A stretch of DNA of 64,000 nucleotides. Source: a virus. Location: positions 1 to 64,000 of the IMG/VR virus record IMGVR_UViG_3300009151_000053. One strand, written 5' to 3'. The translations under genes were made by a program, and so were the position numbers. Below the pieces are notes generated by a model that saw only the letters and a program-made list of their open reading frames with translations, was not told the origin of the DNA and searched no databases. Shown piece by piece: positions 12 to 5,489 of this stretch; within the stretch, counting starts at the first letter, position 1; each line of letters opens with the position of its first letter.

Positions 12-611
12 ATGCCCTCTGTATTTTTGACATCTGATACACACTTCGGTCATGCTGGAGTGTGTCGCTTTCTTACCAACACTGGTGAGAAGTTGCGCCC
101 ATGGGACAATCCAGATGATATGGACGAAGATATGGTGAAGCGGTGGAATGAAACCGTGAAGCCAAACGATAAGGTCTATCATCTTGGTGATGTTGTGATC
201 AACCGCAAGGCTCTGGCTATTATGCATCGCCTTAACGGTGATAAGGTGCTGATCAAGGGCAACCATGACATCTTTAAGTTGGATGATTATACGCAACACT
301 TCCGTGAGATTCGTGCATACCAGGTTATGGACGGTATGATTCTAAGTCATATCCCTATCCATGAAGCAAGTCTTGGAAGATTTGGCACGAACATCCACGG
401 ACATCTGCATAGCAATCGTGTGATGAAGGCCAACGGCTTTGACAAGAAAACTGGTCAAGTGCTGTATGGAAATCAGATCGATCCAAGATACATTAGCGTT
501 TGTGTAGAAGCCACAGACTTTCGTCCTATTTTATTTGAAGAAGTGAGGCAACGTATCATCGACCAAGGTGGAACTGTCGGATTTAAGAACGGAAACGGTC
601 CCACTATGTAA
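12..611 (+). CDS. Calcineurin-like metallophosphoesterase
   Basis: Motifs SDTHFGH, HLGDV, KGNHD, LSHIP and IHGHLH. Confidence 0.9.
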
Positions 612-1164
612 GGGTTCTGCCTCGAGTCCAATCAGGTCCGGGGCAGTCTTTTACTACTTTGTTGATATAGCCATTAGTCCACCAAATGGCACCAATGCGT
701 TTTGTTCCAATAAGTTGTTTAGTAGATTCGGATAACTTTTGACCTGTTTTACTTTTGCTACCTTTGGCATTTTGATTGCCTGTGGCACGAATCGATCTCG
801 CTTTACACATATCTTCTGTATATACAGTATTTTTTGCAAGTTGATTTCCTAACAAACGAATAGACGACTGATGTCTATGTTTAATCGATGGAATCCACCC
901 GGACACACCATCTCCTCCATCAGTTTTGTTATACAATATTCCAGAACTTAAATCTTTTCGTCCATACCAACGGATATATCTACGCTCTAATGCACATGCA
1001 CCAATATCTGATAAGTTCGTTTCTAAGAATATGATCTTTGATTTGTCTTTGGGAACAGACACATTATGTTGTGGTGAATATGCTCTGTTGCCTTTTCCTT
1101 TACCAATATAGTAAGGCGTTCCATCAGATTTTCTGACATAGGCATAGACGTAATAAATAAACAT
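604..1164 (-). mobile_element. Free-standing GIY-YIG homing endonuclease (Seg-like)
   Basis: N-terminal YVYAY...PYYIGKG..RAY, catalytic-type ALERRYI and YNKTDGG; basic NUMOD-like C-terminus; antisense to its neighbours; AAGGAG RBS. Confidence 0.85.
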
Positions 1165-1233
1165 TGCTGATACTCCTTGAAAGTGTTAGAGTCTGTGGAT
1201 ATTGACGTATCGTGACAGACACTTCTATTTATA
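1165..1233 (-). promoter_or_regulatory. T4-type late promoter plus structured leader of GIY-YIG gene 1
   Basis: TATAAATA on the minus strand at 1233-1226, then a GTCTGT/ACAGAC stem and TCTAACACTTTCAAGGAGTATCAGCA before the ATG; second copy at 2700-2771. Confidence 0.75.
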
Positions 1234-1259
1234 TTTTTCAGGAAACTACTAAATAATGA

Positions 1260-1382
1260 TTGCCATTCGCTCGGTATCATAGTATATTGAGTGAGTAAGC
1301 CGATGCGCTGAGGCTTAGAAGCGCCGTGAAACGTAGAGAACGGAATGCACGAAAGACATTCGCTGGATTGCGTAACCAGCAC
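1260..1382 (+). ncRNA. Candidate structured non-coding RNA, family not recognised
   Basis: Non-coding; lies between ACTAAATA (1248-1255) and TATAAATA (1384-1391); five adjacent stems and a possible pseudoknot. Confidence 0.5.
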
Positions 1383-1383
1383 T

Positions 1384-1391
1384 TATAAATA
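1384..1391 (+). promoter_or_regulatory. T4-type late promoter
   Basis: Exact TATAAATA upstream of the cell wall hydrolase gene. Confidence 0.7.
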
Positions 1392-2819: not shown

Positions 2820-3065
2820 ATGGAAGAAATCGTACTAGAAAAGGCTCTATCGAGTGAAAAGTTTACAGCCGATATTGAAAATCTGATTGCACAACATAAA
2901 CTTAACTATGTTGATGCGGTCATTCATTATTGCAACATCAACAACATTGAAGTCGAAAGCGCAGCCACAATAATCAAGCAAAATCTTAAGATGAAGGCTC
3001 AACTAGAGTCTGAGTATGAGAGTCTTAACTATTTGCCAAAGCGGGCTAAACTGAACTTCGGATGA
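2820..3065 (+). CDS. 33: Late promoter transcription co-activator, T4 gp33-like
   Basis: F..DIE...LNYVDAVIHYC..NNIEVE...LNYLPK pattern; 81 aa; synteny 33-59-32. Confidence 0.85.
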   Translation: MEEIVLEKALSSEKFTADIENLIAQHKLNYVDAVIHYCNINNIEVESAATIIKQNLKMKAQLESEYESLNYLPKRAKLNFG

Positions 3066-3655
3066 GAGTTGCTATGACTCCCTTTGAGACTTACAAGACA
3101 TTCGTTGCTCTTAAGGCACACTTTGAGACCAATTATGATTATATTAAAAATAATGGTAATACAAAAAATATCACACAAGATGTCTTTAAACAGAGAAGAG
3201 ATGCCAACTTCTTTTACAAAATAGCCAGACATAAAGACTCGAAAAACTTTATGCTGGCTAACTTTGTTGGCAATTCTATTTCTTATGCTGGTGATCTAGC
3301 AACTGATAAAGCGGATGTTGTATATTCAGACTGGCTTAAGCGGCAGCAGGCTATTACATATATCTTTACTGAAGACTGCAATAAACTATTGACAAACTTC
3401 AATGAAAACTTTATAGTAAAGAGTGGGCAGAGACCACATGCATTGAAGTTATACTTACAGAAACAGATCAGTATTGAAACACTGATCATTTTGAATGACA
3501 TATGCAAGTTCTTTCCACATTGGAACAAGACAATCACTGAAACGATTATCTGGCCATCAATATATAAGAAGTGCATTAAATATAAACCGTTCTTTCGTTA
3601 TGACACTGCAAAGTGTAAACAGATCATGAGAGACATATTTACAGGTGATGAATGA
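3062..3655 (+). CDS. 59: DNA helicase loader, T4 gp59-like
   Basis: MTPFETYKTFVALKAHF..NYDY, ISIETLIIL and KYKPF motifs; synteny. Confidence 0.85.
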   Translation: MRVAMTPFETYKTFVALKAHFETNYDYIKNNGNTKNITQDVFKQRRDANFFYKIARHKDSKNFMLANFVGNSISYAGDLATDKADVVYSDWLKRQQAITYIFTEDCNKLLTNFNENFIVKSGQRPHALKLYLQKQISIETLIILNDICKFFPHWNKTITETIIWPSIYKKCIKYKPFFRYDTAKCKQIMRDIFTGDE

Positions 3656-4554
3656 CTGATTACTTTCAATACAATGTAGGACTGCCATCCAACCCTTTCA
3701 TGGATGCTCCTGCTCCTTTGTTCTCTGATAAAGAGACAGCGGATAAGATGGCTCGTGCAAAGCAAATCAATGACGACACTTTCTGGGCTTCTATGCGTGA
3801 AGTCTTTGCTAAAGACCTGGAAACGCTTCCTATGGAACGCTTCAAGGTCTGGGCTTCCACTATGACTGTTCCTATCATGAGTCGCAATCGGTTAACTGCT
3901 TATATGAAGATTGCTTTGGATGCTCTTGAACTTAAGGCAGTCGATGGACCCACTCGTACTGAGATTGCATTAACCGAACCCATGATTGGTATAACTGAAA
4001 AAGATTATCCAATCTATGCAGTCTTTGATGACTTCAAGACAACCATGAATCGTATCCAAGCATTCGCACATCTTAAAATCAATCGTATCTCTGCTGCTGA
4101 CCTTGAGCGTATGGACACAATCGTTGAACTTGGCGGTGGTGTTGGTGATATGGCTGATGTTGTCTACAAGTTGGGATTCAAGGGTAAGTATATCATCTAT
4201 GACTTCCCTGAACTTGGTAAGATTCAAAAGTGGTATCACGATGAACTTGGGTTGACAAACGTGGTACATACTGATAATATTAATGATCTGGTAGACGCTG
4301 ATCTATGCATCGCTACTTGGTCATTGACCGAAATGCCTATGGATTTGAGAGATCAGATTGTAGACAAGATCGGGAATACGAAGAATTGGCTCATTGCCTA
4401 TTCTAATGAAATCTTCGGATTTGATAACGATAAATACATCCGTGAGAACTTGCTTCCACGGTTCAAAGTCGGCTATGATACAGAGTTTACCGATGTACCA
4501 TATATGGCTTGGGATGGTGGCACCAAGTATGTCACGATCAAACAAAACACATAA
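3652..4554 (+). CDS. Putative SAM-dependent sugar O-methyltransferase
   Basis: IVELGGGVG SAM-binding motif, YIIYDFPE and DLCIATWSLTEM. Confidence 0.65.
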   Translation: MTDYFQYNVGLPSNPFMDAPAPLFSDKETADKMARAKQINDDTFWASMREVFAKDLETLPMERFKVWASTMTVPIMSRNRLTAYMKIALDALELKAVDGPTRTEIALTEPMIGITEKDYPIYAVFDDFKTTMNRIQAFAHLKINRISAADLERMDTIVELGGGVGDMADVVYKLGFKGKYIIYDFPELGKIQKWYHDELGLTNVVHTDNINDLVDADLCIATWSLTEMPMDLRDQIVDKIGNTKNWLIAYSNEIFGFDNDKYIRENLLPRFKVGYDTEFTDVPYMAWDGGTKYVTIKQNT

Positions 4555-4589: not shown

Positions 4590-5489
4590 ATGTCATTTGC
4601 AGACCTAAAGCGTACTTCTTCCAGCAACTTTGAAAAGTTGAACCAAGAACTTTCAAAGATGAACACAAAGTCATACAATGATGACGACAAGGATAAGTAC
4701 TGGTACCCAGACACCGACAAGGTTGGTAACGGCTATGCTGTTATTCGGTTCTTGCCACCAGCAGAAGGCGAAGATATTCCATTCGTCCGCATCTGGGACC
4801 ACAGTTTCAAGAATCCAGATACTGGACAGTGGTATATCGAGAAGTCGCTATCGACTCTTGGTAAGGCTGATCCGCTCGGCGAGTATAACTCAAAGTTGTG
4901 GAACTCTGGTATTGACTCTGATAAGGAAATCGCTCGCCTTCAGAAGCGCCGTTTGACCTTTGTCTCTAACATCTATATCATCAAGGATGGTGCTAATCCT
5001 GAAAACGAAGGAAAGGTCAAACTCTTTAAGTATGGTAAGAAGGTGTTCGACAAGTTGAATGATGCAATGAACCCACAGTTTGATGATGAAAAGCCAATGA
5101 ACCCATTTGACTTCTGGGCTGGCGCGAACTTCAAGTTGAAGATTCGTCAAGTCGAAGGCTATCGTAACTACGATAAGTCCGAGTTTGATGCAGTTGGTGC
5201 ATTGTTTGAAGATGACTCTAAGTTGGAAACAATCTGGAAGCAAGAGCAATCTCTACAGGCTCTGATCGATCCTAAGGTCTTCAAGACCTACGAGCAACTT
5301 CAGGCTCGTCTCAATCTGGTGTTGGGTAAGACCAAGACTGTGGCTGAGACACGGAATAGTTTTGTCGAAGATGATTATGTAGCACCTGCGCCTGCGGCTA
5401 AGGCTGCTCCCGCAAAGGCTATTGCGTCAACTGATGACGATGATGACGACGGGCTAGAGTTCTTCAAGCGACTCGCTGAAGAGGACTAA
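4590..5489 (+). CDS. 32: Single-stranded DNA-binding protein, T4 gp32-like
   Basis: GNGYAVIRFLP, WYIEKS, YGKKVFDK, GANFKLKIR..EGYRNYDKSEF and an acidic C-terminal tail. Confidence 0.95.
   Translation: MSFADLKRTSSSNFEKLNQELSKMNTKSYNDDDKDKYWYPDTDKVGNGYAVIRFLPPAEGEDIPFVRIWDHSFKNPDTGQWYIEKSLSTLGKADPLGEYNSKLWNSGIDSDKEIARLQKRRLTFVSNIYIIKDGANPENEGKVKLFKYGKKVFDKLNDAMNPQFDDEKPMNPFDFWAGANFKLKIRQVEGYRNYDKSEFDAVGALFEDDSKLETIWKQEQSLQALIDPKVFKTYEQLQARLNLVLGKTKTVAETRNSFVEDDYVAPAPAAKAAPAKAIASTDDDDDDGLEFFKRLAEED

Follow-up and report, generated by a model that had tools for sequence, protein, structure and literature searches.

The stretch described here lies near the left end of the window, the 64,000 nucleotides of DNA that were analysed, which are the first 64 kb of an 82-kb virus record in IMG/VR (IMGVR_UViG_3300009151_000053). 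The record belongs to a T4-type phage, with the genes of gp33 (2820-3065) and gp59 (3062-3655) present in the window and with structural genes that are preceded by exact TATAAATA late promoters. The flagged stretch (1248-1391) is located inside a gap of 356 nt without a gene (1165-1520), and the region 1266-1380 of this gap (core 1296-1380), on the + strand, encodes one copy of an uncatalogued phage RNA family; it is the only copy of the motif found in the genome record. The left end of the window is occupied by a metallophosphoesterase gene (12-611, + strand), which in relatives sits inside a tRNA cluster. It is followed by a GIY-YIG seg-like homing-endonuclease cassette (604-1250, - strand), which comprises the gene (604-1164), a structured leader and a late promoter of its own (at about 1225-1233, - strand, reverse complement TATAAATAG), and this cassette forms the left border of the RNA locus. 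A stranded C-terminus of the phosphoesterase beyond the cassette was considered and rejected, as no such reading frame exists. The downstream neighbor of the RNA is the gene of a SleB-like cell-wall hydrolase (1521-2075, + strand; Pfam Hydrolase_2, E = 4.9e-22), and 3' of it lies a second GIY-YIG gene (2070-2699, - strand).

In an earlier note on this DNA, made from the sequence alone, the stretch 1248-1391 was described as a compact, pseudoknotted candidate noncoding RNA between two late promoters. The six helices listed in that note, as well as the promoter-like octamers ACTAAATA and TATAAATA, are all found where they had been placed. The helices are the first hairpin, with the arms TTCGCTCGG (1266) and TTGAGTGAG (1287), the two H-type stems, TAAGCC (1296) with GGCTTA (1312) and GCGCT (1305) with AGCGC (1320), and three further stems, CCGT (1324) with ACGG (1340), GAATG (1343) with CATTC (1357) and GCTGG (1362) with CCAGC (1376), all on the + strand. 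The description of the stretch as noncoding and richer in G+C than its flanks is also accurate, since 1260-1383 has 49% G+C, compared with 36-39% in the flanks and 40% in the whole window, and no + strand open reading frame (ORF) of at least 30 residues with a start codon extends over it. The statement that it is not a tRNA agrees with ARAGORN, which finds 0 tRNA or tmRNA genes in the whole window, and with the Rfam models of tRNA and tmRNA, which miss the motif. When all of Rfam 15 is considered (4227 models, including riboswitches, ribozymes, tRNA, tmRNA, Y RNA, GOLLD and ROOL), there are 0 matches in the whole window, and the region 1150-1540 gives only two noise matches at E <= 10 (12.7-14.8 bits). 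In the homolog loci discussed below, Rfam recognizes only tRNA, tmRNA and a group I intron, away from the motif, and the comparison with Rfam that the note had proposed thus returns no family for the window or for its homologs. A remnant of the tRNA, tmRNA or GOLLD RNA that is present at the locus in relatives was rejected, as even at E <= 10 none of these models gives a match. Searches of the literature by words and by sequence strings found no account of the family.

Relatives of the stretch are not detected in GenBank phages by direct sequence comparison. The intergenic region of the window and three other family members have no blastn match in 50,697 GenBank phages, and the pseudoknot of the earlier note, written as an exact degenerate pattern, has 0 matches in IMG/VR because its arm sequences are lineage-specific. 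The closest SleB-like proteins in IMG/VR and metagenomes are only 62% identical, and the one close relative (L083, 86% nucleotide identity) begins within the SleB gene and therefore provides no upstream sequence. In 160 loci collected via the neighboring proteins, the gap recurs only in its first 74 nt (seg leader and promoter), always beside seg-like genes, the leader (1165-1238) being the sole part of the gap that is kept next to seg-like genes in L131, L084 and L154. A weak nhmmer match (E ~0.05) relates 1338-1469 of the window to the sequences upstream of the SleB-like genes of two loci (L003 and L023), and in these loci two adjoining hairpins with identical loops and compensating stem changes can be read. 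A degenerate pattern that fixed only the conserved bases of loops and junctions, along with most of the second of these hairpins (hairpin D), and that left both arms of the first (hairpin C) free, was used together with two looser patterns, and the three patterns match 5, 28 and 61 loci of IMG/VR, respectively, which together are about 64 distinct loci. The middle pattern matches 28 viral loci and 3 places in 596 Gb of prokaryote genomes, and only 1 of these 3 scores well.

The family represented by the window core is present in at least 60 uncultured-phage contigs, which come from water phages and include complete genomes of up to 400 kb, and its members are often located among tRNA genes. 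Homologs upstream of SleB-like genes and covariation among them had been named in the earlier note as ways of checking its proposal; such homologs are found, and pairs covary across the family. The motif is not found in five jumbo relatives (records of 220-365 kb, four of them 92-100% complete), and it is therefore not universal in the clade. Two copies, 223 nt apart, are seen on one contig (L306, 6137-6185 and 6360-6408), the only multicopy contig seen. The sequence is specific to viruses, apart from one plausible bacterial copy in the prokaryote genomes scanned, in Paracoccus niistensis (L272, 7140-7187, - strand, 33.6 bits), in which the pair of the second pseudoknot (PK2, described below) is kept as C-G. 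By eye, this bacterial copy lies about 150 nt after a tRNA-like T-arm or tRNA 3' fragment, with an IS3-type transposase ORF nearby, and this setting suggests the border of a prophage or island.

The 3' half of the RNA is the part that is best defined by the comparison. It was captured in a 49-nt covariance model, referred to as R1, which at E < 1e-5 matches 48 places in 47 searched sources, on independent contigs, the window scoring 63.3 bits. In the 45 distinct sequences, 97.1% of the cells are paired, compared with 76% for column shuffles and with at most 47% when the partners are slid sideways; the alignment is fitted to R1, which favors pairing, whereas PK2 is outside the model and the arms of hairpin C are outside the retrieval patterns. 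Two-sided changes are seen in 9 of the 14 pairs (143 cells), and the covariation score of the 45 sequences is reached by none of 500 shuffles. Hairpin C (1343-1361, + strand) is formed by 1343-1347 with 1357-1361 and by 1348 with 1355, with a bulged A1356 and the hexaloop ACGAAA (1349-1354); all 6 of its pairs show two-sided changes, and 95.2% of its cells are paired. Hairpin D (1362-1380, + strand) is formed by GCTGG (1362-1366) with CCAGC (1376-1380), and it closes the 9-nt loop ATTGCGTAA. Its consensus is GCYGG - A NNNN GUAA - CCRGC, in which the GUAA (GTAA in the DNA) is near-invariant; here all cells are paired and two-sided changes occur in 2 pairs. In this way, the GAATG/CATTC and GCTGG/CCAGC stems of the earlier note obtain comparative support as hairpins C and D.

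The second pseudoknot, PK2, had been missed in the earlier note. Its 5' strand (A, C, G at 1340-1342, + strand) forms 3 base pairs with 1371-1373 in the loop of hairpin D. In the 45 sequences, pair 4:33 is GC in 20, AU in 13, UA in 11 and CG in 1, being unpaired in none, and the middle pair 3:34 is CG in 45 of 45. Pair 2:35 is GU in 28 sequences and AU in 12, and since G-U on one strand is A-C on the opposite strand, this pair fixes the + strand as the RNA strand. The 3' strand of PK2 in hairpin D lies opposite ACG at 1340-1342, which is also part of the 3' arm of the CCGT/ACGG stem; this stem is kept in no relative, and its 3' arm is taken by PK2.

The 5' domain is more variable. In the window, it contains an H-type pseudoknot, PK1 (1296-1324, + strand), with stem S1 formed by 1296-1301 (TAAGCC) and 1312-1317 (GGCTTA) and stem S2 by 1305-1309 (GCGCT) and 1320-1324 (AGCGC). 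The H-type pseudoknot of the earlier note is exactly at the PK1 position of the family, and both of its stems are comparatively supported, with arms that differ between lineages. When the knot is anchored by requiring its last strand to end 5 nt before the conserved CGU, it is found in 22 of 30 members, compared with 10.6% of shuffles. With S1 written in [ ] and S2 in { }, the knot reads [UAAGCC]gau{GCGCU}ga[GGCUUA]ga{AGCGC}CGU in the window, [AGCR]g{CCAAC}[UGCU]auagu{GUUGG}CGU in class 1 and [UGGUG]a{CUGGC}[CACCA]uaagau{GCCAG}CGU in class 2; S1 is [CGUA]...[UACG] in L266, and S2 is {CCGGA}/{UCCGG} in L267. In L260, it reads [CAGUU]{AGAGGA}c[AACUG]aagu{UCCUCU}, which is not anchored by CGU and comes from an unanchored search. 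The 5' domain is of another kind in eight of the tested members, L245/L248 and L246 among them, and likewise in class 3, which was outside the PK1 test. The conserved CGU anchor (1325-1327) and its linker (1325-1339, + strand) connect both knots; hairpin B, which is found between the knots in most members, is absent in the window, in L014 and in L027.

Upstream of PK1 lies hairpin P0 (1266-1295, + strand; arms 1266-1277 and 1284-1295, loop CATAGT), which is the first stem of the earlier note in an extended form. An equally good hairpin is seen in 1 of 200 shuffles of the window sequence, and in L260, L180, L244/L254, L169 and L258 the knot is likewise directly preceded by a hairpin at the equivalent position, unrelated in sequence; P0 is modestly supported, as an optional and variable element. 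A sigma-70-like match at 1260-1288, overlapping P0, is not above shuffles. When the six helices of the earlier note are taken together, four are comparatively supported, the first hairpin is supported modestly and the CCGT/ACGG stem is not supported. The broader proposal of a compact, pseudoknotted, noncoding RNA is borne out by the family comparison and by covariation, which reveal a fold under selection in a virus-specific RNA with two pseudoknots.

The genomic context of the motif in other phages is diverse, and in all loci the motif is on the same strand as its neighbors. It is in or beside a tRNA cluster, on the tRNA strand, in L260, L291, class 3, L246 and L117. In L260, it takes up the space from tRNA-His to tRNA-Tyr, with 9 nt left between its end and tRNA-Tyr, in L291 a sequence read by eye as tRNA-Trp begins about 10 nt after it, and in class 3 several copies have a tRNA at a distance of 65-150 nt, the arrays containing up to 24 tRNAs. 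In L003, L006, L027, L180 and L266, the motif is downstream of a permuted tmRNA, at distances from directly adjacent to about 1 kb. At least 11 loci have the motif upstream of gp44, the clamp loader, its end being 12-27 nt from the start codon and a Shine-Dalgarno sequence following closely, and in most of the gp44 loci it is 3' of gp45, the sliding clamp, or in L270 3' of a redoxin gene. It directly follows the gene of a DUF2828/DUF7788 von Willebrand factor A (vWA) protein in seven loci, and in L245 and L248 it is preceded by a gene that by eye is regA-like and by a small ORF. The flanking protein genes (SleB-like, gp44, hsp20-like by eye, vWA, DUF2828) are unrelated to each other. A DUF2828/DUF7788 protein as the obligatory partner, in a ribonucleoprotein of the Ro60/Y-RNA type, was considered and rejected: DUF7788 is not found in the window's own record nor in five motif-bearing records, including a 100%-complete 400-kb phage, and the protein is therefore not an obligatory partner. 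By sequence, the DUF2828/DUF7788 protein has no relative in the Protein Data Bank (PDB).

Several other observations were made at these loci. In the SleB-linked subgroup (L003, 2513-2850, and L023, L028, L004 and L007), more conserved noncoding sequence is present 3' of the motif, with a 16-bp hairpin followed by ACGACGGRGG...CCUCCAUUGACC in a gene-free stretch of about 520 nt, and the window retains a faint echo of this element, TTTTGTACGGTGG, at 1443-1455. A tRNA with a CUA anticodon (tRNA-Pyl according to ARAGORN) is present in L102, L103, L111, L120, L147, L149, L180, L253, L269 and L271, and L120 additionally has a tRNA with a UUA anticodon; these suppressor tRNAs hint at stop-codon reassignment or read-through in the relatives. 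The L246 contig, which is not T4-like and also bears the motif, has a group I intron (4595-4907; Rfam Intron_gpI, 50.1 bits) in or next to a gene of terminase type (by eye).

The borders of the RNA in the window are best understood by considering the promoters and the cassette. The octamer ACTAAATA (1248-1255, + strand) is a probable remnant of a late promoter of the RNA, in which the first three bases are replaced at the cassette junction. Its first two bases differ from those of TATAAATA, the exact sequence of every clear late promoter in the genome. A strain variant, which is a DNA contig from another metagenome (run X3) covering 1251-1554 with 13 substitutions and 4 gaps in total, matches the window only from 1251 onward, the break at 1250/1251 being inside the octamer (ACT|AAATA). 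The first 128 nt of the variant contig do not match the window, and the two strains thus diverge at 1250/1251; by eye, the resemblance between the window's two GIY-YIG cassettes also ends at this junction. In L247, L244 and L254, TATAAAT(A/G) and then GATGCC are found at the equivalent distance upstream of P0, where the window reads ACTAAATAATGATTGCC (by eye). As the octamer departs from the consensus and contains the breakpoint, it looks like a promoter that was cut at the edge of the cassette. The RNA probably once had its own late promoter at 1248, of which the first three bases were replaced on insertion of the cassette, as judged from these sequence comparisons.

The second octamer, TATAAATA at 1384-1391 (+ strand), is an exact late-promoter octamer downstream of the RNA core, 129 nt before the start codon of the SleB-like gene, a distance much greater than that seen for the genome's late genes. 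The strain variant carries the octamer unaltered, and it is at this position in no homolog. The location between two late promoters that had been proposed is therefore not retained, as ACTAAATA is off-consensus and cut at the breakpoint and the octamer at 1384 lies 3' of the core. Farther downstream, AGATCGT (1403-1409) and GCGGTCT (1415-1421) form, according to RNAfold, a weak terminator-like hairpin of 7 bp followed by TTATT (1403-1426, + strand). The hairpin (1403-1421) fails a simple terminator scan, and the variant change A1403>G preserves its pair; clear terminators are present 3' of the motif in L117, L245/L248, L165/L169 and L271. The differences listed for the variant contig are all at 1391 or farther downstream, with 9 substitutions and 3 indels at 1391-1482 and none listed between about 1281 and 1390, which includes the whole core, and this distribution points to selection on the core; by a rough estimate, the chance that all 12 differences fall downstream, if evenly spread, is about 1e-3.

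The two minus-strand seg-like cassettes of the window (604-1250 and 2070-2789) have near-identical leaders and late promoters. The second is missing from the closest relative L083, and the first is absent or different in the strain variant. In L154, a permuted (two-piece) tmRNA (1638-1997) is located about 140 nt downstream of a seg-type leader, and in L131 a GOLLD RNA recognized by Rfam (3310-3771) is located about 475 nt downstream of a homolog of the seg leader. The homing endonucleases of this clade sit beside RNA genes, like segB in T4.

In the reading favored here, and held with moderate confidence, the motif encodes a small RNA that is stable, folds by itself and exerts its effect by means of its shape. 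The RNA would be transcribed along with its neighbors, in some lineages from its own late promoter, and would then be released from the longer transcript; within tRNA arrays, the release would be due to the nucleases of tRNA processing. Once free, the RNA would persist, and its shape could allow it to bind, for example, a protein or some component of the translation apparatus. In the window, the homing-endonuclease cassette would have inserted just upstream, probably clipping the late promoter of the RNA. As several members are placed like a tRNA gene in arrays, with no mRNA to regulate, the common denominator of the loci is a self-contained folded RNA. Several points weigh against this reading. 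The window itself carries no tRNA gene according to ARAGORN, no partner protein for the RNA was found, and the loops of PK1 in the window are unusually short (L1 = 3, L2 = 2 and L3 = 2 nt, with L3 over a 6-bp S1). The placement close to gp44, with its Shine-Dalgarno sequence, fits a cis-acting role. The only RNA data are metatranscriptome contigs that cover 1362-1775 and leave 1198-1361 uncovered, at about 5x depth and with possible carry-over of DNA, and neither the cover nor the hole counts as evidence. The minimum free energy of the + strand (-34.6 kcal/mol) is close to that of shuffles (-31.9 +/- 3.9; z = -0.69; 47 of 200 shuffles equal), and for the minus strand z = -0.91, so that the fold energy is significant on neither strand and is unusable as support. 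The earlier note had listed a fold energy indistinguishable from shuffled controls as a reason to abandon its proposal; this is indeed what is found, but it is overturned by the comparative evidence. The equality with shuffles, like the position of the motif at the edge of a mobile endonuclease cassette, would also be expected if the stems were due to chance or if the conserved signal acted as DNA (a homing site, an origin or a protein-binding site). Such an explanation is very improbable, because compensatory double changes are seen in 9 of 14 pairs, the G-U pairs are sensible on one strand only, the pseudoknot pair covaries and most homologs have no endonuclease gene nearby.

The other explanations accept the RNA and differ in how it would work. 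It is possible, though doubtful, that the knot is a cis-acting element, a punctuation mark in polycistronic RNA, which would block exonucleases or direct processing and thereby set the stability or translation of the neighbors, like exonuclease-resistant RNAs (xrRNAs) or intercistronic stabilizers. This would agree with a motif that is always in the sense orientation between genes, that in many loci (after the gp45 or DUF2828 gene) starts about 10-20 nt from the upstream stop codon, that in class 2 and L284 ends 12-27 nt before the gp44 start codon, and that often has a terminator or strong hairpin on its 3' side; moreover, the T4 clamp (gp45) and clamp loader (gp44) are required in different amounts. 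However, the copies of L260, L291 and class 3 are among tRNA genes, where there is no mRNA to regulate, the neighboring genes are unrelated, and in the window the copy and the next gene are separated by 140 nt that contain a promoter-like octamer. A riboswitch-like sensor, in which a ligand aptamer would control a downstream terminator or ribosome-binding site, would be consistent with the highly conserved, pseudoknotted core and the variable 3' part, with the terminator hairpins in the window, L117, L245, L165 and L271 and the Shine-Dalgarno sequence and start codon that in class 2 follow at once, and with a second occurrence of TAACCAG (1371-1377) at 1398-1404, where it is part of the 5' arm of the hairpin farther downstream, which would allow GCTGG to pair with either. 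It is nevertheless hardly probable, as the downstream features (gp44, SleB-like, hsp20-like by eye, vWA, ORFs of unknown function, tRNAs) share no function, several copies are followed by tRNA genes, a conserved alternative pairing across members was not found and known riboswitch families give no match in the Rfam scans. A new class of self-cleaving ribozyme that would cut the transcripts of tRNA arrays or polycistronic units is improbable too. The compact fold of two pseudoknots with near-invariant unpaired ACGAAA, GUAA and CGU would suit it, as would the single copy per genome in many unrelated contexts and beside tRNAs; known phage ribozymes (hammerhead, HDV-like "theta") are likewise scattered and next to tRNAs. 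One metatranscriptome contig (run X2) starts exactly at 1362, the first base of hairpin D at the C/D junction, which would be in line with cleavage, but this is a single low-depth observation, and a contig end at about 5x depth is no evidence of a cleavage site; the same contig extends past TATAAATA and the terminator-like hairpin and reaches into the SleB-like gene. Even at E <= 10 the ribozyme models of Rfam give no match, and on inspection the helix order is unlike that of the HDV, twister, pistol or hatchet ribozymes. The topologies of hammerhead, group II domain 5, HDV, twister and pistol were compared by eye, and none fits. For the ribozyme or protein sponge suggested in the earlier note, the evidence speaks neither for nor against. 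A more far-reaching reading, which is considered unlikely, is that the family is a new functional class of RNA in large water phages, either a new self-cleaving ribozyme that processes tRNA-array transcripts or a knotted decoy or mimic that would engage a factor of the tRNA or translation system, of the host or of the phage. This factor could be, for example, a tRNA-targeting defense nuclease or a processing enzyme. Either of these two possibilities would explain why the motif travels with tRNA and tmRNA genes.

The near-invariant unpaired bases and the tight fold make the RNA a good candidate for structural studies and for studies of ribozyme activity, ligand binding and protein binding. The window also shows a homing-endonuclease cassette that has landed beside an RNA gene, apparently clipping its promoter.

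When compared with known systems, the family has several partial counterparts. Phage self-cleaving ribozymes (hammerhead, twister, pistol, hatchet and the HDV-like "theta") are small, pseudoknotted and scattered and are sometimes found beside tRNAs, but the helix order of each class differs from that of the family, and no Rfam ribozyme model matches. GOLLD and ROOL are, like the family, structured phage RNAs of unknown function near tRNA genes; they are, however, Rfam families of 400-800 nt, whereas the RNA described here is about 85-130 nt and matches neither. A bulk catalogue derived from IMG/VR lists 8,495 structured-RNA candidates named "DNAVirus_X" with covariation evidence and reports motifs that immediately precede T4-type genes, gp20 and gp32 among them, and clamp genes are not mentioned in the main text of that paper (PMC10690425). 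The present family may be among these 8,495 unnamed candidates (PMC10690425). The operator pseudoknot of gene 32 in T-even phages is also an H-type knot with short loops in a T4-type phage, and PK1 has the same crossing topology. The gene 32 knot immediately precedes its gene and binds gp32 (PMC10690425), whereas the family RNA is not next to gene 32, has a second knot and two more hairpins and is found in tRNA arrays.

The closest likeness in genomic habit is to the small stable RNAs C and D of T4 (species 1 and 2 RNA; AF158101, 70908-71171). These are noncoding RNAs of about 120-140 nt and are, like the family, small and carried by T4-type phages; in both cases the RNA is on the tRNA strand, within or beside the tRNA cluster and next to a GIY-YIG seg gene. 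Homology to rnaC and rnaD was considered and rejected, as neither sequence nor model similarity is seen: R1 has no match in the T4 rnaC/rnaD locus (L249), blastn finds only chance words of 8-10 nt, and nhmmer with the family profile gives nothing at E <= 10. In addition, rnaC ends in a tRNA-like T arm (GGTTCGAATCC, by eye), whereas in the family there are two pseudoknots and a T arm is absent. That small stable RNAs without an assigned function, such as the T4 RNAs C and D, are part of phage tRNA clusters has been known for fifty years, and to this puzzle the present comparison adds a well-defined family that is supported by covariation and absent from Rfam.

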